From the IMG/VR virus record IMGVR_UViG_3300011339_001230, positions 1 to 40,310 of that record: a DNA stretch of 40,310 nt; one strand, 5' to 3'. Shown here in pieces: positions 1,730 through 36,949 of this stretch. Source of the stretch: a virus. Taxonomy: Duplodnaviria; Caudoviricetes. Made by a program: the position numbers and the translations under genes. Under the pieces are notes generated by a model. That model was not told the DNA's origin and ran no database searches. It was given only the letters and a program-made list of their open reading frames with translations. Every line of letters starts with the position of its first letter. The stretch's first letter is position 1.

Positions 1730-3135
1730 GAAAATTAATATCTGAATCTGGTATTAGAAATATTAGAGAACTTTCTGATAGATACCAAAAGGCTAAAATT
1801 TATTTCCACCAAGATTTGGATGGTGTTACAACAGCAATTGCTATGAGGGATTACCTCCAAGCAAATGATATTGAAGTTGTTGATACTGAAGTAATTCAGT
1901 ATGGTGATAAAGAGTGGTCGGTAAAGAAAGCCGATGCGAGGGGTGATGTAATGCCAGTTCTTGTAGATTTTGCTCACGGTAAACCGATGTTTGTAATACA
2001 TACAGACCACCACGATAGACAAGCTGGAGCTGAAGAAACCGGCTCAAAATCATTTAGACAATCAAGGTCAAATGTTGAAACACTTTCTCAAATTATACCA
2101 AAATCAGATTTATTTCCACCACAAGATGTTGCAACCATATCTATGGTAGATTCGGCGGACTATGCAAAGAAGGACATAACTCCTGAAATAGTTATGAATT
2201 ATGTTTACAAGTTTGATAAAGATAAGTCCGCCGCTGACAATAGAATGCTTTTAGGGCTTGTTACAAACAAATTACTTCTTGCATTTAAAAACAAACCTGA
2301 GTTTTTAGAGAAGTTAGTTATGGTTAGTCAACCTTCTTTAATTGACTTGTTTAGGAATATTAAAGAAATTATGAACCTTAAAGGTTATCCTGGAGAAGAA
2401 ACTTTAGAGAAAAATAAAGCGGACTATATTGAAAAAATGAAAGACTACCCTGAAGTTAAGGGTAATATCATAGTTCAGTATGGTGGAGGTAGTATGATGA
2501 AGCCAGGTTCCTACGATAGATATACACCTTTCAAAAATAACCCTGAGGCTGACTTTTTGGTAATTGCGTGGCCACTCGGACTTCTTCAGGCATCTTGTAA
2601 TCCATTTAAGAAAGAGAGAGAACTAAAAGGTGTTAATCTTGGAGAAATTGCCCAAGAAGTTTTGGGTAAGTGGGAAGATAGGTTGAAAGATAAAACAGTG
2701 ACACTTTCAACAATTAAATGGATTTCTGAAAGTGCTAAAGGATTTGGAGCCGAGTCAGTTGGATTTACATTTAAAGATTTTGCGGCAATTTATGGAGATA
2801 AGTTTTTAAATAAAGACGAAGGTGTAAAGGACTTAATGAATATTAGAGAACTTATGAGTAAACCATCATCTGAGTTAACTGAGGATGAATGGAAAACACT
2901 TGATAGTATTGAGGTTAATGCTTGGGACATTATACAAGCTAATTCAGGAGGACATAAATGTATTACTAATATATCTGGTTTGAACTTCTTAGGTAGAAGT
3001 AAAAGACCACCACAAGGAAAATACAAATATGACCCTGAAAAAGACGATTCTCCTTATATTAAGTTTCTTAAAATGTTACAGAACGAATTTGTTAGGGTAC
3101 TCCAACAAAAAATTGAGGACGCAAAGAATCAGTAG
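1726..3135 (+). CDS. DHH-superfamily phosphoesterase-like protein
   Basis: HQDLDG, VDFA, TDHH and a late GGH motif. Confidence 0.7.
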   Translation: MRKLISESGIRNIRELSDRYQKAKIYFHQDLDGVTTAIAMRDYLQANDIEVVDTEVIQYGDKEWSVKKADARGDVMPVLVDFAHGKPMFVIHTDHHDRQAGAEETGSKSFRQSRSNVETLSQIIPKSDLFPPQDVATISMVDSADYAKKDITPEIVMNYVYKFDKDKSAADNRMLLGLVTNKLLLAFKNKPEFLEKLVMVSQPSLIDLFRNIKEIMNLKGYPGEETLEKNKADYIEKMKDYPEVKGNIIVQYGGGSMMKPGSYDRYTPFKNNPEADFLVIAWPLGLLQASCNPFKKERELKGVNLGEIAQEVLGKWEDRLKDKTVTLSTIKWISESAKGFGAESVGFTFKDFAAIYGDKFLNKDEGVKDLMNIRELMSKPSSELTEDEWKTLDSIEVNAWDIIQANSGGHKCITNISGLNFLGRSKRPPQGKYKYDPEKDDSPYIKFLKMLQNEFVRVLQQKIEDAKNQ

Positions 3136-3658
3136 CCAACCATTGTTTAGTAAAATCTTTGTTTTTTTCACAATATTTAGCATATCCATTTAGGATTGGT
3201 TTACCTGTATTATACGCCCCACAAGCTAAAGCCCAATCTTTATATTTTTTATAATGTTGGGATAGTATCTTCATCGACAACCATACATTAAGTTCTAAAT
3301 CACGCATAACTTGATTTTTTGTAACTTTGAATCCGGCAAAATATGATGCGTATTTTGGCATAATTTGCATAGCCCCAACGGCTCCAGCCCCAGAAGTTTG
3401 ATACGGGTTATAAAGACTATCTAAAGGTCCTCGATATCGGGTTTCTTTATATGCTACATTATATGCTACATATTTTGGAATATTAAAACTATCTGAATAG
3501 GTTTCTATTAAGTAAAACATTCGATGACTTGGAAGAGCATCCTCCCTTGACCCCAGTTCATAGTAATATTCTCTAACATTTTGTTTATTATTAGAGTTAC
3601 ACAATACTGTTGATAGTAAAATAATAAAAAATCCGAAAATTATCAGTTTTAGTTTCAT
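3092..3658 (-). CDS. Lytic transglycosylase (SLT domain) with N-terminal membrane anchor/signal
   Basis: KET catalytic Glu, GAVGAMQIMP, AYNTG motifs; hydrophobic N-terminus. Confidence 0.85.
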   Translation of the reverse strand: MKLKLIIFGFFIILLSTVLCNSNNKQNVREYYYELGSREDALPSHRMFYLIETYSDSFNIPKYVAYNVAYKETRYRGPLDSLYNPYQTSGAGAVGAMQIMPKYASYFAGFKVTKNQVMRDLELNVWLSMKILSQHYKKYKDWALACGAYNTGKPILNGYAKYCEKNKDFTKQWLATDSLRPQFFVGVP

Positions 3659-4751: not shown

Positions 4752-5600
4752 GATTATCCATCAGGAAGTTGATGATGAGACCTTAGGGTTGATTCTGAGA
4801 CAACTGTAAATGATAATGGGCCGTGTATGGTCCTTAAATAAACTACGAAAGTAGGATAAAGTGACCTCCCCCGTGTTGAGGAGGTTGCGGTTTCGAAAGG
4901 AACTCGAGTACACAAGTGGGATATCACAAGACCTTTAGTACCGAGGGTAACACTGTAGGGAAAGTGGTCAGGTGACTTGGCAAAGTGGATTGTCAAGTTG
5001 AGGTGGGAACACCAACAAGAATAACCCATAGGAATCAAGTAAGAAATGTAGCCTCCAACTACAATATTGCGGGTTCCATTACCGAAGGGTACTTAAAACC
5101 GAAAGGTAAGGTAGAGAACGAGTGGTGTCGCTACTACCCCTAAGGAAGACCTACCAAGGTCTCTTTATGAAGTAATCTGAAAGTATGGAGATAGGGATAT
5201 CTCACGGAGTAGTTTAGTATTCTGTCGCTCAAAAGGAGACGGAACTTACGGTGGACCACTACTCTGACACATCCACGACACAATCTAAAATTATTAAAAA
5301 TAATTTAAGGAAAAGTGTCCATCAGGTTTAAGTGAAAGGTCACTACCTAATCACTGGCTGTCAGTGGTACAGAAAGACCCCAAGTCTGACTGTAGTTTTA
5401 CGAAAAACCTTTAATCCCGCAAGGATGAACTGGGGTGGCAACCTCGGAAAGAGTTAAGTAATAAGAGAGTAACTTAAACCTCAAGGAGTGGTAAACCTAA
5501 AAGACCGTGACTGAGAAATACTTCTCAAAAGGAAGTGGATAAGAAGGGAAACAATAATCCTTCAAAAGGTTCTCACAGAAAGCTGTAATCTCAGGCTTAG
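4752..5600 (+). ncRNA. Large structured ncRNA, GOLLD-like (boundaries approximate)
   Basis: ~850 nt without a credible ORF, GC above flanks, GNRA-capped hairpins (CTAC-GAAA-GTAG, ACC-GAAA-GGT, TCC-CGCAA-GGA), directly upstream of a tRNA in a phage; family assignment is from size and context. Confidence 0.65.
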
Positions 5601-5614
5601 TTTAACTCTTATAT

Positions 5615-5687
5615 CGCAACTTAGAGCAGAGGCCAGCTCGTCAGGCTCATAACCTGAAGGTCGGAGGTTCGAATCCTTCAGTTGCAA
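5615..5687 (+). tRNA. tRNA-Met(CAT), initiator-like
   Basis: Cloverleaf; TCAGG-CTCATAA-CCTGA; C1:A72 mismatch. Confidence 0.92.
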
Positions 5688-5695
5688 CAACTTAC

Positions 5696-10364: not shown

Positions 10365-12251
10365 ATGGGAAAAATTATAGGCATAGATTTAGGCACAACA
10401 AATTCGTGTGTGGCAATCATGGAAAATGGAGAACCAATCGTTATTACAAACAGCGAGGGTAAGAGAACAACACCATCAATCATCGGATTTACAAATGATG
10501 GAGACAGAAAAATTGGAGACCCGGCAAAGCGTCAGGCGGTTACAAACCCCGACAAAACCGTACACTCCATAAAGCGTTTCATGGGAAGTACTTACGATGA
10601 AACAAAGAAAGAAGGAAAGCGAGTTCCTTACAAAGTTGTGAAGGGTGACGGTGGAACACCAAGAGTTCAAATCAATGATAAAAAGTATTCACCGCAAGAA
10701 ATTTCTGCGATGGTACTTCAGAAGATGAAACAAACCGCAGAGGACTATCTCGGACAAGAGGTAACAGAAGCGGTAATTACAGTACCAGCATACTTCAACG
10801 ATGCTCAGCGTCAAGCAACAAAAGAAGCAGGTGAAATTGCAGGTCTTACTGTAAAGCGTATCATTAACGAACCAACCGCTGCGGCACTTGCCTACGGTCT
10901 TGATAAGAAGACTCAGAATATGAAGATTGTAGTGTTTGACTGTGGTGGTGGTACTCACGATGTATCAGTACTTGAACTCGGTGACGGTGTATTTGAAGTA
11001 TTGTCAACTGACGGTGACACTCACCTTGGTGGTGACGACTTCGACCAAGCAATCATCGACTGGCTTGTAAGTGAGTTTAAAGATGAAAATGGTTTGGATT
11101 TAACTCAAGACCCTATGGCTCTTCAGCGTCTTCGTGAAGGGGCTGAGAAGGCTAAAATTGAGTTGTCATCTTCACCATCAACTGAGATTAACCTCCCTTA
11201 CATTATGCCAGTGGACGGCATTCCAAAACACTTGGTTCGTAACTTGACTAAGGCTAAGTTCGAACAACTTGTTGACAGTCTTGTACAAAGAACAATTGCT
11301 CCTTGTAAGACGGCTCTTAAAAATGCTGGACTCAACACCTCTGACATTGACGAAGTAATCTTGGTTGGAGGTTCAACACGAATTCCGGCAATTCAAGAAG
11401 CAGTTAAGAAGTTCTTTGGTAAGGAACCATCAAAAGGTGTAAACCCTGATGAAGTTGTTGCTCTCGGAGCAGCGATTCAAGGTGGAGTTCTTGGTGGTGA
11501 TGTGAAAGATGTTCTCCTTTTGGATGTAACACCACTTTCACTTGGTATTGAAACAATGGGAGGAGTATTCACAAAACTCATCAATGCAAATACTACAATT
11601 CCAACCAAGCAGTCACAAGTGTTCTCAACCGCGGTTGACAACCAACCAACAGTTGAAATCCATGTACTCCAAGGAGAACGTGCAATGGCGAAAGACAACC
11701 GTTCAATTGGTAAGTTCATGTTGGATGGACTTCCACCGGCAATGAGAGGTGTCCCACAGATTGAAGTTACTTTTGACATCGATGCGAACGGCATCATTAA
11801 TGTATCGGCAAAAGACAAAGCAACTGACAAACAACAATCAATTCGTATTGAATCTTCTTCAGGACTTTCAAAAGAAGAGATTGAGCGTATGAAGCAAGAG
11901 GCTGAGGCGAATGCCGACTCTGACAAGAAAGCAAAAGAAGATGCTGAAACAATCAATCAGGCCGATTCAACAATCTTTAACATTGAGAAATCAATGAAAG
12001 ACATGGAAGAGAAAATGACTGAGGAGGAAAAGACCAAAATCTCTTCTGAACTTGAGGAACTTAAAACCGCGCATGATTCTCGTGAAGTAGAAACAATCAA
12101 AGAGAAAATGGAACAGGTTAACCAAAGTTTCCAAGAAGTATCTGTTAGATTGTATACTGAGGCACAATCTCAATCATCAGCTCAAACTGAAGAAGTAACA
12201 GAAGACCGTGAGGTTACAGATGTTGACTTTGAAGAAGTTGAAGTAAAGTAA
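10365..12251 (+). CDS. dnaK: Chaperone DnaK (Hsp70)
   Basis: [33 protein letters not shown]; full length 628 aa. Confidence 0.98.
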
Positions 12252-13397: not shown

Positions 13398-13574
13398 ATG
13401 GAAGAGAATACAGAGATGAATAAAGTACATACAATCAGATTTGGTGAGTGGATTGCTCAAAATTACGAACCCTGTGGTGATAAGAGTTGGAAGAAAAGGT
13501 TCCCTAAGACATCAGAGGAAATGATGGAATGTTTTTTTACAGAGGAAATTTATAAAGAGTTTTTGAAATCATAG
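13398..13574 (+). CDS. Small hypothetical protein (58 aa, not in ORF track)
   Basis: MEENTEMNKVHTIRFGEWIAQNY...; stop codon overlaps the following tRNA-like element. Confidence 0.5.
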   Translation: MEENTEMNKVHTIRFGEWIAQNYEPCGDKSWKKRFPKTSEEMMECFFTEEIYKEFLKS

Positions 13575-13706
13575 TCAAGTGGCGGAAATGGAAGAGTACT
13601 CTCCAGGCAGACGTGACGCATGGTTATAGCAGCGTGGGTAATAAAGGTCAATGCGACTGGCTAACTATAATGGCACCCCGTGAAGGTTCGAACCCTTCCT
13701 TGACTA
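13573..13706 (+). ncRNA. Expanded tRNA-like RNA, copy 1
   Basis: AGTCAAG/CTTGACT-A acceptor, TGGCGGAAATGG D-arm start, GAAGG-TTCGAAC-CCTTC T-arm; 134 nt, no 7-nt anticodon loop. Confidence 0.75.
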
Positions 13707-13790
13707 CTTAAAAAAAATCACTTGAGGTATAAGTACAGCTTCTTGTGAAATAAATAATTGTACTAAAATTTAAACACGTTTTTCTTTTTT

Positions 13791-14906
13791 ATGAAAAAAA
13801 TTTTATTTTCTTTTATCCTGACCGTGTTGAGCTTGGTTTCCTTTGCTCAAATTTCGGTAGTTGATGTTATCGTCAACAGTCCTGACCATGACACATTGGA
13901 AGCCGCGGTAATTTATGCTGGTCTCGACGACGACTTATCTGGACCTGGTCCATTCACAGTTTTTGCACCAACTGACGCAGCTTTTGCGGCTCTTCCTGAT
14001 GGTACAATCTCTTACCTCCTTAACAACATCAGTGAACTACAAAGTATTTTGAGTTATCACGTTGCCTCGGGTAGTGTTTTATCTAGTAATTTGACAAACG
14101 GTCAAACAATCACAACATTGCAAGGTGAAGACATTACAGTTACAATAGGAATGAACGGTGTAATGATTAACAACGCCCTTGTCACAGTTGCTGACATTGT
14201 TTGCAGTAACGGTGTTGTACACGTAATTGATGTGGTTCTGTCTCAGCCAGTCTTTACGTCAAATGTTGTGGATGTAATTGTTAATAGCGATGTTCACACT
14301 ACACTTGAAGCGGCAGTTGTTGCCGCAGGTTTAGTAGAAACACTTAGTGGTGTTGGACCATTCACAGTATTTGCCCCTACAGATGCTGCTTTTGCAGCAC
14401 TTCCAGCTGGAACAATTGAGACTTTACTAGCTGACCCAACGGGTGACCTTACACAGATTCTTCTCTATCACGTAGTGGGAGCTCAAGCTCTTTCAACTGA
14501 CTTGACTGATGGACAGACTGTTGAGACACTACAAGGTCAAACTGTAACAGTTACTATTAACACACAGGGAGTATTCATCAATAATGCTCAAGTGATGGTT
14601 GCTGACTTCGTAACTGATAACGGTGTAGTTCACGTAATTGATGCGGTCCTTGTCCCACAAACACCAAACTCTGTATCAAACACTGAAACTGTTAGTTTGA
14701 ATATTCCGAACCCTGTAATGGAAAACATCAACATTCCTTCAACAGGTAATTCAAATGTTCAGATTTTCACAACTTCAGGTCAAGTTGTATATTCTCAAAA
14801 CTTCAATGGTTCAATTGACATTGATACCCGTAATCTCTCATCAGGTGTTTATCTTCTCCAAGTAGAAGCTGAAAACTTTAATGGAGTTACAAAAATCGTT
14901 AAGTAA
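13791..14906 (+). CDS. Secreted double-fasciclin (FAS1) protein with T9SS type-A C-terminal sorting domain
   Basis: Signal peptide; two copies of FTVFAPTDAAF...NGVVHVID; C-terminal PNPV...TTSGQVV...LSSGVYLLQV...KIVK. Confidence 0.9.
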   Translation: MKKILFSFILTVLSLVSFAQISVVDVIVNSPDHDTLEAAVIYAGLDDDLSGPGPFTVFAPTDAAFAALPDGTISYLLNNISELQSILSYHVASGSVLSSNLTNGQTITTLQGEDITVTIGMNGVMINNALVTVADIVCSNGVVHVIDVVLSQPVFTSNVVDVIVNSDVHTTLEAAVVAAGLVETLSGVGPFTVFAPTDAAFAALPAGTIETLLADPTGDLTQILLYHVVGAQALSTDLTDGQTVETLQGQTVTVTINTQGVFINNAQVMVADFVTDNGVVHVIDAVLVPQTPNSVSNTETVSLNIPNPVMENINIPSTGNSNVQIFTTSGQVVYSQNFNGSIDIDTRNLSSGVYLLQVEAENFNGVTKIVK

Positions 14907-15123: not shown

Positions 15124-15159
15124 GGTTTTAGCCTTATATTTGTAGAAGTTATTTGAAAT

Positions 15160-15184
15160 GCTGGGATGATGGAATCGGTAGACA
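15160..15184 (+). pseudogene. 5' fragment of a tRNA-Leu-like gene
   Basis: GCTGGGA-TG-ATGGAATCGGTAGACA after a promoter and boxA (15147); no matching 3' half. Confidence 0.6.
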
Positions 15185-15212
15185 GAAATGGGTAGACGAT
15201 ATATTTATACAT

Positions 15213-15857
15213 ATGAGACCATATGTATATAAATTAGAAAATTTGGACGGAGAGTTTTATTATGGGGTTAGATGGGATTATGAAGGAGAACCCGAAAATG
15301 ACTTACTTAAAGAATATTTTAGTTCATCCGTGACTGTTAAAAAAATGATTTCTGAAAATGGAATTAATTATTTTAAAGGTACAATACTTAAATTGTTTGA
15401 AACAAAAGAACAAGCTCTTGATTATGAATACACTCTAATAAAGGAATCTATTAATAATGATAAGTGTTTGAATAGAGCAATGGGTAAATGTACTATTTGG
15501 AATGATGAGTTGAAGAAAAAAGTTTCAGAAAGTGTAAAGGAATTATGGAAAAATCCTGAATTTAGGGAAAACCACCTTAAAAGTCGGTCAAATATTATAA
15601 ATCATAATTTTGGACTTAAACCTTGGAGAAATGTTTGTTCAGATTTGGAAAGTTGGAAAAAAGCTATTATAATTTATAACGATTATAAGACTGAAAAGTG
15701 GAACTTACACAAATATGGTTTTGGGAGATTTTTTCTAATAAAAAGATATGGAATCAAACAAGGCTCGGCTAGAAGGTTAGTTGATTTGTTAAGAGAAGGT
15801 TGGAACCCATATGATGATTTGGATTATTTGAATTTCATAGATATGCCCGGATGCTGA
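15213..15857 (+). CDS. GIY-YIG homing endonuclease (Seg-like)
   Basis: PYVYKLE...FYYGVR, YFSSS, ALDYE, CLN motifs; TATTTATA at 15202; 3' end overlaps tRNA-Leu. Confidence 0.75.
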   Translation: MRPYVYKLENLDGEFYYGVRWDYEGEPENDLLKEYFSSSVTVKKMISENGINYFKGTILKLFETKEQALDYEYTLIKESINNDKCLNRAMGKCTIWNDELKKKVSESVKELWKNPEFRENHLKSRSNIINHNFGLKPWRNVCSDLESWKKAIIIYNDYKTEKWNLHKYGFGRFFLIKRYGIKQGSARRLVDLLREGWNPYDDLDYLNFIDMPGC

Positions 15858-15927
15858 AATGGTATACAGTGCAGACTTAAAATCTGCTGAGCAATTGCTC
15901 GTGAGGGTTCGAGTCCCTCTCCGGGTA
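15845..15927 (+). tRNA. tRNA-Leu(TAA)
   Basis: GCCCGGA/TCCGGGT; GCAGA-CTTAAAA-TCTGC; long variable arm. Confidence 0.95.
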
Positions 15928-15963
15928 CCGAAGACTTTTTTGTACCTAATGATGAAAATTTTT

Positions 15964-17453: not shown

Positions 17454-17762
17454 ATGAAAGAACAAGAATTTGAAGCAATAGGTAAGGTTATGGACTACTT
17501 TGACTTCGGTCGGGTTCATAAGGTAATGGAAGCTCTTGATTGGAAATGGTCAACTCTTGATGACGGCCCAAGGGTTCCCGATGAATGTGAAATCCGTACC
17601 GAGGCGAGAAGATTATTGACACAAGCTGTTAAGGAAAAAATGTCAATTGCAATAGGTGGATTTTATGCCACATACCGGAACGATGATGATATTGAATGGG
17701 TTGATTTGAAGTTTGTTGTTGAGCAGTGGGATGAAATAATTGAAAAAGATTTGGCAGAATAA
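17454..17762 (+). CDS. Hypothetical phage protein
   Basis: FDFGRVHKVMEALDWKW; ATG 4 nt after TATATTTG. Confidence 0.75.
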   Translation: MKEQEFEAIGKVMDYFDFGRVHKVMEALDWKWSTLDDGPRVPDECEIRTEARRLLTQAVKEKMSIAIGGFYATYRNDDDIEWVDLKFVVEQWDEIIEKDLAE

Positions 17763-17797
17763 AAGATTCTCCGTATATTTGTAGAAGTTCTTTGACA
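17751..17797 (+). promoter_or_regulatory. Promoter plus boxA heading the ncRNA array
   Basis: TTGG...CGTATATTTGT followed by AGTTCTTTGACA (17786-17797). Confidence 0.7.
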
Positions 17798-17803
17798 TTA
17801 ACA

Positions 17804-17925
17804 GGTGGGGTGACAGACGAAAGTTAGATTATCCAAGTCAATCGTAGCTACGGTGTTTTAAAACACGATGGATATGCAACAAGTAGAGTTATAGGAAATG
17901 AGTCGCTATCATTTCTCCCCCACCG
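17804..17925 (+). ncRNA. Structured RNA with tRNA-like ends
   Basis: GGTGGGG/CCCCACC closing stem; GAAATGA-GTCGCTA-TCATTTC hairpin in the T-arm position. Confidence 0.55.
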
Positions 17926-17934
17926 CATATTAAA

Positions 17935-18022
17935 AGGTTGATTGGGATTTTGGGGCTAGCACAATAGCGAGAAACGCCAATCGTAAAAGTAGATGTCCAC
18001 TCCCCCATCTTCTACTTATCCT
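17935..18022 (+). ncRNA. Structured RNA module with possible pseudoknot
   Basis: GATTGG/CCAATC stem; AAGTAGA/TCTACTT hairpin whose loop CCCCA can pair with TGGGG. Confidence 0.45.
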
Positions 18023-18029
18023 ATACTTG

Positions 18030-18112
18030 TGTGTTGTTCCCTTGAGAAAGGAAAGGAGTAGAGCTTAGTGACACTAGAGTCATCACTACAACACAGAGGG
18101 ATTCTCATCCTC
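18030..18112 (+). ncRNA. Kissing-loop RNA motif, copy A
   Basis: TGTGTTGT/ACAACACA, TTCC/GGAA with loop TGAGAA, GAGGG/TCCTC with loop TTCTCA. Confidence 0.7.
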
Positions 18113-18117
18113 AATAT

Positions 18118-18199
18118 AGTCAGGTGGCGCAAGGGTAGCGCGATGGTGGACCGAAAGGAAGCAAACCATAGGTTACAAGTTCAAATCTTGTCCTGACTA
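18118..18199 (+). ncRNA. Expanded tRNA-like RNA, copy 2
   Basis: AGTCAGG/CCTGACT-A; D and T arms present; ATGGT/ACCAT stem closes a 17-nt loop containing CC-GAAA-GG. Confidence 0.75.
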
Positions 18200-18203
18200 C
18201 AAA

Positions 18204-18279
18204 TGTGTTGTTCCCTTGAGAAAGGAATTAGTTGGTAGGTCATCCAGTTATGACACAACACAGAGGACTTCTCATCCTC
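18204..18279 (+). ncRNA. Kissing-loop RNA motif, copy B
   Basis: Same conserved blocks as 18030-18112 with a different middle hairpin. Confidence 0.7.
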
Positions 18280-18372: not shown

Positions 18373-18482
18373 AGTCAGGTGGCGGAATGGTAGACGCTAC
18401 ACGTAAGTCCAACGATGACCAAAGGCATGATGACCTGCGGAGTTACTGGTTGGTAATACACGTTCGATTCGTGTCCTGACTA
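18373..18482 (+). ncRNA. Expanded tRNA-like RNA, copy 3
   Basis: AGTCAGG/CCTGACT-A; Leu-type D arm GGCGGAATGGTAGACGC; ACACG-TTCGATT-CGTGT; 110 nt. Confidence 0.78.
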
Positions 18483-18684: not shown

Positions 18685-18999
18685 AGTCAGGTTAAAGAAA
18701 TACAGAGTGGCGCAGGTTGATACTACTTCGCAAGTAGATTGATACAGAGTAAAAAGAGGTGGGGGAAACCACTCATTAACCCACCCAATTTTGTACCACG
18801 AAGCTTACCATAAGAACAGCTCACTTCAGTGGTCATTTCAAAACTATGAATAGCCCAAGGCATAAGTAGTGGAGGTCGGTCAGGTAATGCGTAATGTGGA
18901 AACGGCTATCACATCCTTAAAAACACCACGGTCCATAACCATTTGGACGCGAGAAGTTATAGGGTTGCATCGTTGTGGGTTCAAGTCCCACCCTGGCCA
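18685..18999 (+). ncRNA. Expanded tRNA-like RNA, copy 4 (5' end at 18685 or 18878)
   Basis: GTGGG-TTCAAGT-CCCAC-CCTGGCC-A 3' end pairs with GGTCAGG (18878) or, less well, AGTCAGG (18685); several internal hairpins. Confidence 0.55.
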
Positions 19000-19214: not shown

Positions 19215-19326
19215 AGTCAGGTGGCGGAATTGGTAACGCACATACAACGAGAGCTAGGCCGGCTCGCCTGTAAAACCAGTAAGTTGTATGGTGGTATAAA
19301 TAGGGGTTCGAATCCTCTCTTGACTA
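19215..19326 (+). ncRNA. Expanded tRNA-like RNA, copy 5
   Basis: AGTCAGG/CTTGACT-A; 8-bp CATACAAC/GTTGTATG stem enclosing 34 nt instead of an anticodon loop. Confidence 0.78.
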
Positions 19327-19414: not shown

Positions 19415-19508
19415 AGTCAGATGGCGAAATTGGTAGACGCAGCCTCAAGAAAGGTTGGACTAATAGGAAGAATAAATCCACTTGCAGGTTCAAGTCCTGT
19501 TCTGACTA
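19415..19508 (+). ncRNA. Expanded tRNA-like RNA, copy 6
   Basis: AGTCAGA/TCTGACT-A; Leu-type D arm; AGCCT/AGGTT stem with a 6-nt loop; enlarged variable arm. Confidence 0.75.
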
Positions 19509-21897: not shown

Positions 21898-21972
21898 GGG
21901 GGCGCATGTACCAAGGCTTGGCGAGAAACACTTGCAATGTTTCTGTGGTCGTTTCGATTACGACCGTCTCCA
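21898..21972 (+). tRNA. tRNA-Ala(TGC), atypical D arm
   Basis: AAACA-CTTGCAA-TGTTT; G3:U70; A73. Confidence 0.85.
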
Positions 21973-21983
21973 CAATATAATAT

Positions 21984-29567: not shown

Positions 29568-30089
29568 ATGGAATGGTATATTGTAAGAGCGCAAGCAAAT
29601 CGTGAACGAAAAGTTTCTGAACGAATTCTAAAAGAAGCTGACAAAGGAGAACTCAATGGAGTTATCGGACGAGTAATTGTTCCACTTGAAAAAGTATTTG
29701 GGACAAAGGAAGGTAAGAAAGTACAACGAGAGAAGGTAATGTTTCCTGGATATGTATTCGTTGAAACATCTGCAATTGGTGAACTTAAGCAAGTTGTTAA
29801 AAAGATTGACGGAGCGACAGGACTTTTAACGGACAGAGCAGGTAATGTCCAAGTTGTAAAAGAAGCTGAAGTAAAAAGAATGATTGGGCTCCACGAAGAG
29901 AATAAAGAAAAGAGCTTCAGTGATATTTTTGGAATTGGAGATGAGGTAACTGTAACTGAAGGACCATTTGCCTCCTTCAAAGGGAACATCGAATTTATCG
30001 ATAAAGAAAAAGGTAAACTCAAAGTTAATATTCTTATCTTCGGTAGACCAACTACCGTGGAACTTGATGAAACTCAAATTAGAAAGTAA
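29568..30089 (+). CDS. nusG: Transcription termination/antitermination factor NusG
   Basis: WYIV, FPGYVFVE (NGN domain); GDEVTVTEGPFASFKG (KOW); IFGRPTTVEL. Confidence 0.93.
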   Translation: MEWYIVRAQANRERKVSERILKEADKGELNGVIGRVIVPLEKVFGTKEGKKVQREKVMFPGYVFVETSAIGELKQVVKKIDGATGLLTDRAGNVQVVKEAEVKRMIGLHEENKEKSFSDIFGIGDEVTVTEGPFASFKGNIEFIDKEKGKLKVNILIFGRPTTVELDETQIRK

Positions 30090-32336: not shown

Positions 32337-34145
32337 ATGAAACAGTTAATTCTAATATTTTTTATTTTATTTACTTATACTTCACAATATTCACAGTGTG
32401 GTGGAGATATGACATTCGATTTGAGTGTTCCACCAGCCGCTGACGGAACATATCCACCCAATACAACGGTAGAACTTTGTGTTACTATGACAAATTGGAA
32501 TGGTAACATCCAAGGGTCAAATTGGTTAGAGGGTTTTGGATTAACTTTGGGAGCCGGATGGATTACAACAACTCCTACACTACCCCCAAACGATGCTGAT
32601 GGTGATGCAAGTGGAACTTGGATATGGGTAGAGAGTGTTACTTCAGACGCAACGGGATTGACTGCCGGTCCTGGTTACTTCTTCGAGGGTCCCACAGGTC
32701 CTATTGACGGTAACCCTGGAAATGATTGGGGTGACTATTGTATGAATGGTGATTGTGTTTGGACTTTTTGTGTTGAATTAACATCTTCAGGAACTAGCGG
32801 TGAGTCATTAGATATTGGGGTCACACCTTATGCTGATGGTAGTATGGGAAGTTGGGGAACTGAAATGTGTTTTGATGAGGTTGTAGATATTATTGATAGT
32901 GAGGTGGGTTGTAACACTTATGGATGCACTGATGCTTCCGCTTGTAACTTTGACCCACTTGCAGCTTGCGATGATGGTAGTTGTGAACAACCAGGTTGTA
33001 TTGACCCCGTCGCCTGTAATTACGACGCAAATGCGGATTGTGATGATGGAAGTTGTACTTATGGAGGTTGTATAGACCCATTCGCCTGTAACTTTAACCC
33101 ACTAGCAGGTTGTGATGATGGAAGTTGTGGATATTTTTCTATGGGTAATATAACCCATAATTTTATTCCTTGTCCTGACACAACTTGTATTGGTTCAGAA
33201 GTAACTTATTCTGTTACAGGAAATGTAAGTTCTACATATGATTGGAATGTTACTGGTGGAGGACTTGTGATTACTGACCTTACAAAAGACTGTGAAATAA
33301 TTTGGGGGGAGATTCCCGGAACTTATACAATTACAGTTCAAGAAACAACCGAAGAAGGATGTGTTGGGGAAATAAAAACCTGTGATGTTGAATTGATTAT
33401 ACCTGACATTACATTTGACACCAACAAATATTCAATGTGTTTAAATGCTTCAGAACAATTAATTGCATATCCCCAAGGAGGAACTTGGAGTTCTGAATTT
33501 ATGAATGGAAATACATTTGTTGGAACAAAACCTGGAACTTATTACCCTTCATATTTAACGAACATTCACGGGTGTGATATTCAAGAGGAAGTTGAGGTTG
33601 TTGTTAAAAGGAAATATGAAGCACCGGCAATTATATATAGTTCCGAGATTATTGATTTTTGTGTTGATTCATATAGTCAAATCTATGTTGCCGATGATAC
33701 AATTGGTATTACTTATAGTTGGTTTATTGATGAATCTAAACAACCGACAAATGACAATGTGTTAAATATGGAGTGGTATGATACTACTCGAACTTACATT
33801 GTAAAAGTAATTGCTTATGATGAGATTGGATGTGAGAGTGAACCAAAACTCATATCAGTTAAAACTGAAACTTGTCAGAGATTTTTCGCCCCCAACACAT
33901 TTACACCAAACGGGGATGGGACTAATGATATATTCAAAATTAGTGGACTATCCGTTTATCAGCCGACACTTAAAATATTCAATAGATGGGGAGTAATAGT
34001 ATATACATCTAGTAATCTTTGGTGGACTGGAGATAGTGGGGGTGGTTACTATTGTGATAATGGGGTTTATAATTGGATAATTGAATATAAAGATAAATTC
34101 GGGCAGAATAAAGAAGAGTCCGGTTATGTAACACTTGTAAGATAA
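32337..34145 (+). CDS. Secreted Cys-rich protein with T9SS type-B (gliding-motility-associated) C-terminal domain
   Basis: Signal peptide; three GC.D..ACN....A.CDDGSC repeats; PNTFTPNGDGTND...IFNRWG...GVY...GYVTLVR. Confidence 0.88.
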   Translation: MKQLILIFFILFTYTSQYSQCGGDMTFDLSVPPAADGTYPPNTTVELCVTMTNWNGNIQGSNWLEGFGLTLGAGWITTTPTLPPNDADGDASGTWIWVESVTSDATGLTAGPGYFFEGPTGPIDGNPGNDWGDYCMNGDCVWTFCVELTSSGTSGESLDIGVTPYADGSMGSWGTEMCFDEVVDIIDSEVGCNTYGCTDASACNFDPLAACDDGSCEQPGCIDPVACNYDANADCDDGSCTYGGCIDPFACNFNPLAGCDDGSCGYFSMGNITHNFIPCPDTTCIGSEVTYSVTGNVSSTYDWNVTGGGLVITDLTKDCEIIWGEIPGTYTITVQETTEEGCVGEIKTCDVELIIPDITFDTNKYSMCLNASEQLIAYPQGGTWSSEFMNGNTFVGTKPGTYYPSYLTNIHGCDIQEEVEVVVKRKYEAPAIIYSSEIIDFCVDSYSQIYVADDTIGITYSWFIDESKQPTNDNVLNMEWYDTTRTYIVKVIAYDEIGCESEPKLISVKTETCQRFFAPNTFTPNGDGTNDIFKISGLSVYQPTLKIFNRWGVIVYTSSNLWWTGDSGGGYYCDNGVYNWIIEYKDKFGQNKEESGYVTLVR

Positions 34146-34405
34146 TGCACGATAGAAAAATTATGTTTAGATTATTTTGGGCGATAATTGTAATTGCTTC
34201 GTTGTCGATAATGACATTGATGGTTGGTTGTTCTGAAAGACAAAAACAAAAAGAAGTTGGTGTATATAATGTGGACACTTTATCACATACCAATTACTCC
34301 ATTTATATCATAGATAGTTGTGAGTATATAATTTTCTATGGAGGTAGTTCGACTTGGGGAAGTCATAAAGGAAATTGTAATAACCCAATTCATGCGAATC
34401 ATTGA
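34145..34405 (+). CDS. Small lipoprotein/membrane protein
   Basis: Hydrophobic N-terminus with VGC; IDSCEYI...HKGNCNNPIH. Confidence 0.72.
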   Translation: MHDRKIMFRLFWAIIVIASLSIMTLMVGCSERQKQKEVGVYNVDTLSHTNYSIYIIDSCEYIIFYGGSSTWGSHKGNCNNPIHANH

Positions 34406-35117
34406 AAGATTTGTAAAAAATGATACACCATATTTGGGGAGATTAGTGTTAAGATTGGAGAGAAATTCAAATTATAGAAGTATAAAAAAAGGTTATTTGA
34501 ATAAAATCCATCTAAAATTTTTATTTTTCAAATTAGTTACGAGATTAATCCCTGAGATTAATGATAATAAATTAATCCCTGACCCTGATAAGGTTGCCCT
34601 TATTGAAAAATATACCGGCGGAATAATTGTGGAAAGAAGAGTAAAGGAAAAAGAATTAAATGATGCTTTAATAACTAAGCATAATTTCTTAACTAAAGAT
34701 AAAAGAATGGTTGGGGATATTTTTACGGCGTGGGATTACTTTAAAAATCAAATGGTTATTGTGGAAGAAAATCCAAAAGGGGTTGCTTTAGTTTATAAAG
34801 ATAGAAAACCATATGAATATTTGGTAATTACTGATAACGAAAAAATATCAGTTAAAATAGGGGATAGAATTTTTAACGAGAATTATATGTCCAGTATGGC
34901 TAACTATAAAAAAGAAGATTGGAAAAAATGGTATAAAAAATATATTAGGGATTATCATAGGGCTGATGAAAAAAATAAAAAAAGGATTAAGTCGGGAGGT
35001 GTTATAAAATATATCCCCTATAATATGAGAGGAATACAAAAAATTAAAACTCTAGAAGAAGCTAAAATAACCGCAATAAATATAATTAAACAAATTAGTA
35101 AAGATGATAAAAAATAG
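34392..35117 (+). CDS. Hypothetical protein, paralog of the next gene
   Basis: Shares TPY.GR..L..E, LNK.HL, KYTGG, KIGDRIF with 35104-35859. Confidence 0.75.
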   Translation: MRIIERFVKNDTPYLGRLVLRLERNSNYRSIKKGYLNKIHLKFLFFKLVTRLIPEINDNKLIPDPDKVALIEKYTGGIIVERRVKEKELNDALITKHNFLTKDKRMVGDIFTAWDYFKNQMVIVEENPKGVALVYKDRKPYEYLVITDNEKISVKIGDRIFNENYMSSMANYKKEDWKKWYKKYIRDYHRADEKNKKRIKSGGVIKYIPYNMRGIQKIKTLEEAKITAINIIKQISKDDKK

Positions 35118-35859
35118 AACACCATATGTCGGAAGAGTTAGATTAAAATTTGAAAAAAACCCTCACTATACCGGCGGTAAAAGTGGAGTATTAAATAAAG
35201 TTCATTTAAATCTTGGATTTACAAAACTTGTTAGCCGAATGATTCCATATCGCAACGAAGGTGCTTGGGTTGTTAATAGTGAGTGTACAAAACTTATAAC
35301 GAAATATACTGGCGGTAAGATTGGTACTCACACATTTCATGATGGGGAACACCAACTTCCAAATTCTTTTATGACAAATGACGGAACTTATATTGGTAAT
35401 ATTGAAACGGCTTGGTGGTTTTATAATAACAATCTATATGTTTGTCGCGACTATCCTAGTGGTGTTGCAATCAAATTGAAATCTTATAATCCAAAAATAA
35501 CTTTGGTGAATTACATTGAGGATAACTATGAAAATTTCATAACAGAACAAATAGAAAATGATAACATTGAAGGTTATTATGGGTATAGTCATCGAGGAGG
35601 TTCCTTATTCAAAATAGGTGATAGAATTTTTGACAATTACTACCTACCAACAAGAAGTGATTACACCCAAGAAGAATGGGATGGGTATTATAAAAAATAT
35701 CAAGATAGTTTAAGTAAAGCAGATGAGTTTGACAAAAAGTGGATTGTTTCAGATGGAATTGCATCAGTAATTCCATTTAACAAAAGAGGAAAAAAAGTTA
35801 TTGAAAATTGGAAAGAAGCGAGAGAAGCTGCTATTATTTTATCAAAATATTTAGGATAG
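35104..35859 (+). CDS. Hypothetical protein, paralog of the previous gene
   Basis: YYGYSHRG...FKIGDRIF motif. Confidence 0.78.
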   Translation: MIKNRTPYVGRVRLKFEKNPHYTGGKSGVLNKVHLNLGFTKLVSRMIPYRNEGAWVVNSECTKLITKYTGGKIGTHTFHDGEHQLPNSFMTNDGTYIGNIETAWWFYNNNLYVCRDYPSGVAIKLKSYNPKITLVNYIEDNYENFITEQIENDNIEGYYGYSHRGGSLFKIGDRIFDNYYLPTRSDYTQEEWDGYYKKYQDSLSKADEFDKKWIVSDGIASVIPFNKRGKKVIENWKEAREAAIILSKYLG

Positions 35860-35887: not shown

Positions 35888-36949
35888 ATGAACGAGGTTT
35901 TGAATAGATATTATGAGAAAGGATTGGTGTATAAACAAGTACATCCAACCCTTCCTTTAACTATTTGGAATTACTCTGAAAAGGTTCAATACGAAGGTCT
36001 ATTCGATGGTGTTACCCTGAATGCTAGAGGACTTGTTACCGATAACGATGGTAAAATAGCTGCACGACCATTTAAAAAGTTCTTCAATGTAGAGGAGAAC
36101 AAGCATACCCCAACTGAAGAATTTGATGTTTATGAAAAGATGGACGGGTCTTTAGGTATCCTATTTAATTATCAAGGTGAATGGGTAATGGCGACTCGCG
36201 GGTCCTTCACATCAGAACAAGCCGTCAAAGGACTTGAAATACTTCAAAATTATGACTATCAGAAACTTCATAAGGGATATACTTATTTGTTTGAAATCAT
36301 ATACAAAGAGAACAGAATAGTGGTTCAATATGACTACGATGACTTGATACTTCTTGGAATGATAGAAACCAAAACTGGCTATGAAGTTGATTTGTATGGT
36401 GAAGGAAACGATGTTAGATTGAAAAATTTGATATCTAATCTCGGGCTCAAAGTCGTTAAAAAATATGATGGTATAAACGACTATTCTGTCCTCAAAGGAA
36501 TGATAAAGGATAACGAAGAAGGATATGTTGTAAGGTTCTCCAATGGTGACAGAATAAAAATCAAAGGGGAAGAATATTTAAAATTACATAAACTTATGAC
36601 AAATGTATCTACCACCGCAATATGGGAAATGTTAAGTGAGGGTCGTGATGTGTTGGAAATACTGAAAGATGTTCCTGATGAGTTCTATAACAAGATAAAG
36701 ATGTATGTTAGAGATTTAAAATACACTTATTTTTCTTTGAGTGAATATGCCGGAAAAACTCACGATGGGTTCCGATATGGAAAGTTTGGTGATAAGGACC
36801 CCGAGCCAACCAAAAAAGAGTTTGCCGAGTTTTTATCGATGAATAAATATAATCCGGTAATAAGAGCCATATGCTTTGCCATTTGGGACAAAAAGGATTA
36901 TGATAAAATAATATGGAAACATATAAAACCTGAATTTAAAAAATTATGA
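35888..36949 (+). CDS. T4 Rnl1-like RNA ligase
   Basis: RGLV, PFKKFFN, EKMDGSL (motif I), FE, EGYVV, KIK. Confidence 0.9.
   Translation: MNEVLNRYYEKGLVYKQVHPTLPLTIWNYSEKVQYEGLFDGVTLNARGLVTDNDGKIAARPFKKFFNVEENKHTPTEEFDVYEKMDGSLGILFNYQGEWVMATRGSFTSEQAVKGLEILQNYDYQKLHKGYTYLFEIIYKENRIVVQYDYDDLILLGMIETKTGYEVDLYGEGNDVRLKNLISNLGLKVVKKYDGINDYSVLKGMIKDNEEGYVVRFSNGDRIKIKGEEYLKLHKLMTNVSTTAIWEMLSEGRDVLEILKDVPDEFYNKIKMYVRDLKYTYFSLSEYAGKTHDGFRYGKFGDKDPEPTKKEFAEFLSMNKYNPVIRAICFAIWDKKDYDKIIWKHIKPEFKKL

Follow-up and report, generated by a model that had tools for sequence, protein, structure and literature searches.

Since T4 and T5, phage tRNA islands have been known to hold stable RNAs that lack an explanation, and the locus considered here raises the same question in miniature. 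In a stretch of viral DNA of 40,310 nucleotides (positions 1 to 40,310 of IMG/VR record IMGVR_UViG_3300011339_001230; Duplodnaviria, Caudoviricetes), hereafter called the window, two copies of one putative structured RNA lie among tRNA genes. Which fold do these copies share, do they belong to a wider family, and what might such an RNA do for the phage? As a test case the family is very small: its unit of 76 nt is inexpensive to transcribe, natural variants number in the hundreds, and one cultured phage with published infection RNA-seq contains a relative.

The virus record is linear and 14% complete, and ARAGORN makes 19 tRNA calls in the window. The pattern TTTG-N17-22-TANNTTTG, the Bacteroidota-type promoter consensus, is matched 20 times in the window, where 2.97 matches would be expected. 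Because of these promoter-like sites, together with type IX secretion signals in the window, we infer that the host belongs to the phylum Bacteroidota. The stretch of RNA genes that contains both motif copies begins after one such site and is devoid of called genes.

Position and fold of the two copies

The features on which the argument turns all lie on the + strand; bit scores of the copies are those of model R1, whose seed contains both.

17750..17781, +, putative Bacteroidota-type promoter-like site at the head of the RNA-gene array (pattern match)
18030..18112, +, motif copy 1 (class I, free-standing form), 83 nt, 75.8 bits
18030..18036, +, copy 1, 5' strand of P1, partner 18089-18095 (from the alignment)
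18037..18053, +, copy 1, P2 hairpin of 4 bp; loop L2 at 18041-18049, with TGAGAA at 18043-18048; all four P2 pairs covary in alignment A1 (see below)
18054..18088, +, copy 1, variable middle (linker and P3 arm), 35 nt; identical middle in loci L015, L041 and L055
18096..18112, +, copy 1, P4 hairpin; loop L4 with TTCTCA at 18102-18107 (from the alignment)
18118..18199, +, tRNA-shaped frame with no anticodon loop or encoded CCA, an array neighbour outside the motif (Rfam tRNA, 54.4 bits)
18204..18279, +, motif copy 2 (class I), 76 nt, 81.8 bits
18211..18227, +, copy 2, P2 hairpin; loop L2 at 18215-18223, with TGAGAA at 18217-18222
18228..18255, +, copy 2, variable middle: 11-nt linker, 5-bp P3 arm and a single A, followed by the 3' strand of P1 at 18256-18262
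18263..18279, +, copy 2, P4 hairpin of 5 bp with a 7-nt loop, TTCTCA at 18269-18274

The elements follow one another in a constant order, from P1 (7 bp) and P2 (4 bp, with the 9-nt L2) through a linker, the variable P3 and one A to the 3' strand of P1 and finally P4 with L4. The two copies have 24 identical bases at the 5' end and 23 of 26 at the 3' end, separated by unrelated middles of 35 and 28 nt, and a shared 22-mer occurs twice in the window and in none of 100 shuffles, in agreement with a first-pass annotation that had described two copies with common ends and different middles. The fold proposed in that annotation is largely recovered: the stems, the variable hairpin and the 3' hairpin (5 bp, 7-nt loop) are borne out, but the outer stem has 7 bp instead of 8, and the TTCC/GGAA hairpin, correct in its 4-bp stem, encloses not TGAGAA but a 9-nt loop (C-TTGAGAA-A). 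The complementarity claimed for the two loops is exact in both copies, TGAGAA in L2 matching TTCTCA in L4 over 6 bases.

Folding energy by itself lends this fold no support (z of -0.34 and -0.86 for the two copies), unlike covariation among homologues, which does. Alignment A1 comprises 85 of the 110 class I copies (the class of both window copies, defined below), with middles of up to 55 nt and near-duplicates thinned. In A1, 97.0% of cells are paired and 8 of 21 pairs are changed on both sides, with 0 of 500 shuffles as high, the shuffle controls ignoring the kinship of the sequences and their counts not being probabilities; slid controls reach 42-54% paired. P4 is 99.1% paired, and the terminal P1 pair is open in 27 of the 85 copies. 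In alignment A2, which holds 104 of the 133 class II copies, 94.5% of cells are paired, 20 of 24 pairs have changes on both sides, and every P0, P1 and P2 pair covaries. A scan anchored on the tail leaves P1 and P2 free in sequence, and a P3 of at least 5 bp forms in 64% of middles versus 38% of shuffles.

Covariation of the loop-loop pair had been proposed as a check on the fold, and its outcome differs between classes. Five of the six loop-loop pairs in A1 vary on one side only, with G-U kept, and none has a double change; in A2, a single double change is seen in each of three pairs out of seven. Compensatory loop changes are seen by eye in L151, L205/L545, L546, L550 and L137, all outside class I proper, and loop pairs are broken without compensation in L101/L192, L510, L559 and L453. 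When both loops were left free in a metagenome scan, 92 of 96 distinct copies had at least five contiguous L2-L4 pairs, and P4 formed in 94 of the 96. Pairing is thus supported by this complementarity and by a few double changes, but by none from class I in A1, and less strongly than the stems are. Near-invariant bases (240-243 of 243 members) fall in the loop-loop helix, the unpaired loop bases being kept in 204-221 of 243, and no invariant unpaired C occurs among the members. The class II linker AA-T-GAG is invariant or nearly so; at the junction, only a U (69%) and an A (83%) recur among 129 middles, with no other conserved organising sequence. Mimicry of an anticodon loop, suggested by two 7-nt loops that are U-rich on the 5' side, was dropped as an explanation because the loops covary with each other.

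No family of Rfam 15 covers either copy, at the gathering score or at E up to 10, and the motifs of 20 related loci are likewise free of Rfam matches, which there comprise nearby tRNAs and one freshwater-1 RNA only. The novelty of the motif with respect to Rfam, left conditional in the first-pass annotation, therefore stands.

The RNA family and its long form

The motif defines an uncatalogued RNA of lake phages, found between tRNA genes. An estimated 380 or so stretches of the viral collection contain the 17-base P2 hairpin. Six viral scans were each anchored on a different part of the motif, every part being free in at least one, and 248 distinct candidates were parsed, 5 of which were judged by eye to be chance and removed. 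The remaining 243 distinct members, almost all viral, have 228 different middles of 23-121 nt, and of 47 carrier records, 46 contain one to three copies each by model R1. In cellular genomes, two of the 120 pattern matches are family members by eye, and an extra match (G049) sits amid phage-type genes. Model R2 matched 0 of 151 Bacteroidota genomes in a run without positive control, both known members being recovered in a separate R2 run, and BLAST of the window stretch against cultured phages returned only three short chance matches.

Two classes can be distinguished. Class I (n = 110, including both window copies) ends in a terminal Watson-Crick P4. In class II (n = 133), a strict test places a GNRA hairpin 5' of P1 in 97 members, versus 2 of 110 in class I, and of the P4 region only the G-C pair closing L4 is kept (131/133), followed by A-A and G-A oppositions. 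Of the class II members with enough flanking sequence, 85 of 114 have both the 5' element and the 3' hairpin domain of a longer RNA, and 112 have at least one. Class I flanks contain both elements in 0 of 95 cases and neither in 90, and the 3' motif of the long form is absent from the window. The long form spans 158-513 nt, as an RNA of about 320 nt, and RNAalifold recovers little structure from it. Each model also recognizes the other class: R2 gives the window copies 41.1 and 34.4 bits, and R1 gives 50.6 bits to a class II member of Cellulophaga phage phi14:2 that is not in the R1 seed. Together, cross-scores and flank counts identify the window unit, on sequence comparison, as the middle domain of a long phi14:2-type phage RNA standing alone.

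Several variants lie at the margins of this scheme. L213 and L773 are hybrids that combine the 5' GNRA hairpin of class II with the P4 of class I, and L013:1422-1579 (- strand) is a minimal long RNA of 158 nt with both flanking elements. In L148, L773, L779 and L829, which are class I and outside the parsed set, the L2 region is swapped for a longer insert before TGAGA. Three Prevotella matches to a loose pattern (L262, L271, L318) have a different common loop with its own downstream complement and may be coding sequence.

The phi14:2 member, at about 3103-3210, was found by BLAST with a class II query and scores 89.8 bits with R2, whose seed contains the same sequence as L607. A rightward 'long non-coding RNA', above most genes in abundance and persistent, has been reported at the g004-g005 junction of this phage, with no structure or boundaries given in the accessible parts of the report (bioRxiv 10.1101/2020.03.07.982082). 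The motif is absent from the GenBank gp004-gp005 gap, so GenBank numbering is the wrong key to that junction. Since g066 (2,180 residues) corresponds to GenBank gp077, the numbering is offset, and we infer that g004-g005 lies at 2905-3589; the GenBank gp005-gp006 gap is only 18 nt. The phi14:2 motif is thus placed, probably, within the reported abundant transcript. The long RNA of this phage has the P1/P2/L2/L4 core in common with the window copies, whereas the window has only the free-standing domain with a true P4. There is no annotated tRNA gene in phi14:2.

For the window itself, ten runs recorded as RNA contain part of the stretch, and contigs of 8 of 23 listed runs were compared. Contigs of all eight RNA-library runs touch the array, these being contigs of relatives in libraries where DNA may be present. 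All seven runs with pieces listed there cover one motif copy or more (copy 1 in X10 and X14, copy 2 in X11), and the flanking ORFs have none to little RNA-contig cover, their uncovered parts being uninformative.

The tRNA array as a setting

The frame at 18118-18199, between the two copies, has a 17-nt loop where a 7-nt anticodon loop would be expected and is followed by CAA, not CCA; ARAGORN makes no call on it. The first-pass annotation had taken the position of the copies on either side of this element as a layout of the motif, which does not hold across relatives: in the close relatives G009 and G013 the slot is empty of the frame, and copy 1 is kept and runs straight to the element at 18702, with neither tRNA-like frame nor copy 2. 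RNA-library contigs join the upstream flank of copy 1 to the copy 1 middle (X6) or to the copy 2 middle (X11), with a third middle, of 61 nt, in the same scaffold (X6), and identical middles occur across both classes (L080 = L089; L845/L750 = L504/L242). The tRNA-flanking layout is incidental, one state of a shuffled RNA-gene array in which different arms occupy one slot.

A tRNA or tRNA-shaped frame begins within 15 nt 3' of 57 of the 110 class I copies, a tandem motif copy follows five, and 61 of 62 detected downstream units (the five tandem copies included) begin 4-6 nt after the motif. An upstream T-arm lies 25-31 nt before the start of 20 of the 110, copy 2 among them, and all 147 ARAGORN matches within 400 nt of a motif are on its strand. 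In the window, 13 of 14 gaps between tRNA genes measure 3-9 nt, mostly 5-6; a gap of 4-6 nt is ordinary tRNA spacing here and therefore reflects array packing. No neighbour protein family recurs, the top one being present in 7 of 117 loci.

These surroundings bear on four readings of the motif, all of which we consider improbable. As a cis element, it would aid formation of the 5' end of the next tRNA or shield the array transcript from exonucleases in the manner of an xrRNA. The tRNAs close downstream and the regular 4-6-nt gap fit such a role, an 11-bp stem closed by the loop pair would be mechanically tight, and phi14:2 transcripts are still present late in infection. Against this, the gap is that of ordinary tRNA genes, motif copies also sit before other RNAs or one another, and phi14:2 has the long form with no annotated tRNA gene; the nuclease resistance suggested in the first-pass annotation, read as a block to 5' exonucleases, is further disfavoured by the distribution of RNase J (TIGR00649), for which none of 201 Bacteroidota genomes scores above the cut-off, versus 8 of 14 controls, Bacteroidota being the presumed host phylum and other enzymes being possible. 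Similarly unlikely in our judgement is that the motif is what is left of the long RNA, without function or selfish, and propagates by using its constant ends as recombination anchors. The middles shared between classes, the different middles in one slot among relatives, and the gain and loss of blocks are what this would produce; however, free-standing members possess a conserved P4 of their own that the long form lacks as such, changes that keep G-U favour the RNA strand, and the neighbouring tRNAs are all on the same strand.

A new self-cleaving ribozyme that cuts the array in the manner of theta ribozymes, a function also proposed in the first-pass annotation, is still less credible. Its place among tRNA genes would suit it, as would the 20 class I copies that start just beyond a tRNA 3' end, but such an upstream T-arm is lacking in most copies (90 of 110 in class I, 131 of 132 in class II), and the near-invariant bases fall in the loop-loop helix. 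RNA-library contigs run across both motif ends, a weak argument against cleavage where DNA may be present. The hammerhead core consists of CUGANGA and GAAA. It occurs in 0 of 243 members, and the HDV topology is absent too, in line with the earlier remark that the motif resembles neither hammerhead nor HDV-like/theta ribozymes. As described in the accessible parts of PMC10879173, theta ribozymes are, like the motif, small structured RNAs beside phage tRNA genes, built however as a nested double pseudoknot with the 3' strand of P2 after P4 and a catalytic C in J4/2, where the motif has its partner strand in the P4 loop; their 5' end lies within 5 nt of a tRNA 3' end, whereas the motif is mostly 5', not 3', of tRNAs (T-arm upstream in 20/110 class I and 1/132 class II). 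We give least credence to a template or guide scaffold whose arm is copied by a UG27-like reverse transcriptase or pairs with a target. A constant pseudoknotted frame around a variable hairpin, modular arrangement in tandem copies, gain and loss of units, and occurrence in Bacteroidota phages all match the outline of UG27 ncRNA arrays, as far as these are described in the accessible parts of bioRxiv 10.64898/2026.09.22.753630; the motif units are shorter, in one to three copies versus about six, and their carriers lack both the reverse transcriptase and the UG27 motif. A UG27 locus comprises a reverse transcriptase and two accessory ORFs, and its RNA has AUC-N7-UANAG and UUYA motifs on either side of the central hairpin. 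Reverse transcriptase PF00078 is found in 0 of 48 carrier records, 28 of them near-complete, with controls detected, AUC-N7-UANAG occurs in 3 of 243 members and UUYA in 22, and the 228 middles match only other motif copies in the DNA compared, which held no host genomes, bar four matches of 16-23 nt.

Other elements of the array are also structured. Six tRNA-shaped frames (13571-13708, 18118-18199, 18373-18482, 18879-18999, 19215-19326 and 19415-19508), of 82-138 nt with similar ends, have the anticodon arm replaced by different inserts and no CCA after them, and form a second family with a constant frame and a variable insert. Modules at 17804-17926, 17928-18025 and 18702-18794 have no Rfam match, are covered by RNA-library contigs, and are gained, lost or rejoined in relatives. 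The freshwater-1 RNA detected by Rfam lies at L052:2064-2125 (- strand), in the same kind of tRNA array as two motif copies.

Pairing of the end loops

Covariation supports the compact structured RNA with loop-loop pairing that the first-pass annotation proposed, but the pairing need not be within one molecule. The reading that we prefer, with a probability of roughly 0.4, is that the motif is a free-standing small RNA gene whose product would be a short rod with end loops that pair between molecules into head-to-tail rings. Host tRNA-processing nucleases would release each copy from the array transcript. P2, P1 and P4 would then stack into a rod of 15-16 bp with L2 and L4 at opposite ends, and these loops would pair with neighbouring molecules and not with each other, giving rings with the variable P3 arms pointing outward. 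Such a ring would act in trans, as a stable and multivalent structural RNA that sequesters, during infection, a host protein that binds or cuts RNA.

The argument for pairing in trans is geometric. There is no linker between P2 and P1, and 0-1 nt separate P4 from P1. Stems of 6-7 bp are known to allow a short crossing, which was used to choose the groove assignment. On idealised A-form coordinates, the gap over the 11 stacked bp of P1 and P2 is 43.6 Å by the assignment that fits this crossing and 31.5 Å by the other. Four or five helical steps amount to 19-22 Å, and a free base adds about 6.5 Å. The short P4 with a 7-nt loop, present in 29 of the 110 class I copies, reaches about 26-29 Å, and the P4 with a 9-nt loop (72 class I copies) about 39-42 Å at best. 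Short-P4 copies would thus be unable to close in cis while stacked, leaving a bent junction or loop pairing in trans as the two options. Bending usually calls for a conserved junction. We favour pairing in trans because junction conservation is limited to the U and the A, and because of the precedent of GOLLD, ROOL, manA, nanorings and pRNA.

The accessible parts of the relevant reports describe these precedents as follows. Pairs of GOLLD and ROOL that were first seen by covariation proved by cryo-EM to be bridges between chains (10.1101/2024.12.08.627333), and manA variants form pentamers and cages through loop pairs, also by cryo-EM (10.64898/2026.07.01.735769). Monomers of engineered nanorings are nicked 15-bp dumbbells with two 7-nt loops that kiss at about 120 degrees (PMC11637918), and pRNA joins head to tail (PMC7357161).

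Against the preferred reading, covariation is equal for pairing within and between molecules, two loops on one chain are at high local concentration, and the 120-degree angle may not hold for the window loops, whose pairing covers 6 bases instead of 7. The lack of double changes in the A1 loop pairs and the uncompensated breaks in L101/L192, L510, L559 and L453 also count against it. P1 could instead stack on P3, with P2 swinging back and the terminal P1 pair as a possible hinge. The resulting compact monomer, in which P2 and P4 bend and kiss in cis and the triangle serves as a decoy in trans for a host RNA-binding or RNA-cutting protein, is a distinct possibility, although we favour head-to-tail pairing over it. 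Stem and loop covariation fits it equally, the terminal P1 pair is weak, the near-invariant class II linker is what docking on the same molecule would lead one to expect, and the GNRA hairpin 5' of P1 in class II may serve instead as a brace within the molecule; as a precedent for a decoy, phage RNA is known to mimic an antitoxin (PMC3475682, accessible parts). The monomer would, however, need two junctions of 0-1 base to be unstacked, with a linker free in sequence and length; P1 covaries freely, and the identity of the GNRA loop is independent of the P2 sequence.

If the head-to-tail reading is right, one may speculate more doubtfully about a natural RNA nanoring, assembled in bulk from 76-100-nt dumbbells that match the engineered 15-bp RNAI/II ring monomer, with an exchangeable hairpin on each subunit; tandem copies whose loops agree and whose arms differ might co-assemble into mixed rings, and the same unit might be the assembly domain of the long phi14:2-type RNA. 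A decoy role towards a host RNA-targeting defence, akin to the protein decoy that was the third function offered in the first-pass annotation, would fit an abundant, stable and partnerless RNA near tRNA frames without anticodons, by analogy with pseudo-ToxI, in which phage RNA mimics an antitoxin (PMC3475682), and with phage tRNAs able to escape host nucleases (PMC10264068), both as given in the accessible parts of those papers. If rings do form, few natural self-assembling RNAs would be smaller, and a nanotechnology design would have a counterpart in nature, complete with an integral arm for cargo. Whether or not they form, the family marks a stand-alone domain of the long phi14:2-type RNA.

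The family belongs with the structured RNAs of phage tRNA islands. GOLLD (RF02032), ROOL and manA (RF01745) are, in the accessible parts of the literature, likewise phage RNAs without known role, the first two near tRNA islands, and loop pairs in them join separate chains; the motif, too, has covarying complementary loops. They have 600-800 nt or several interfaces, in contrast to 76-83 nt and one loop pair in the motif, which has no Rfam match and whose assembly is predicted from geometry. RNAI/RNAII nanoring dumbbells share with it a nicked rod of 15-16 bp, two complementary 7-nt loops and a side arm, an analogy of shape only (PMC11637918). Phi29 pRNA, which occurs naturally in a phage, assembles head to tail through two complementary loops (PMC7357161), whereas no link to a packaging motor is seen for the motif; compared with both systems, the motif uses one self-complementary loop pair over 6-7 bases. 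RnaC and RnaD of T4 and RNA1, 2, 3, I, III, IV and 2H of T5 are, like the motif, small stable RNAs packed between phage tRNA genes, some of them tRNA-like, and R1 with filters off finds no homologue in these regions (best E 3.5 in T5, no match listed for T4). A literature search, with subscription papers and bioRxiv supplements outside its scope, yielded no published description of the motif, and the 10,006 viral RNA candidates of Fremin et al. (2023), compared in their accessible part without both alignment archives and one table, gave 0 matches. The family may be among those candidates (PMC10690425). New here are the two-class split, the stand-alone domain, the exchange of arms at one slot and the ring hypothesis.

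Elsewhere in the window, a GOLLD RNA lies at 5205-5597 (318 bits, full model), directly followed by tRNA-Met (5615-5688). A tRNA-like gene of the main cluster, at 21899-21975, seems to have a TGC (Ala) anticodon loop; its T-arm is atypical, and it was missed by both ARAGORN and Rfam. A GIY-YIG-type homing endonuclease ORF (15153-15929) overlaps tRNA-Leu(TAA) at its end, and other ORFs resemble DnaK (10365-12251, from the translation), a NusG-like antiterminator (29568-30089) and T4 Rnl1-type RNA ligase (35888-36949). Two phage ORFs have C-terminal type IX secretion signals (13791-14906 and 32337-34145), one of them with two fasciclin domains, and two adjacent ORFs at 34338-35859 match Tad6, the type I Thoeris inhibitor, the Pfam cut-off being exceeded by one (61.7 bits) but not by the other.
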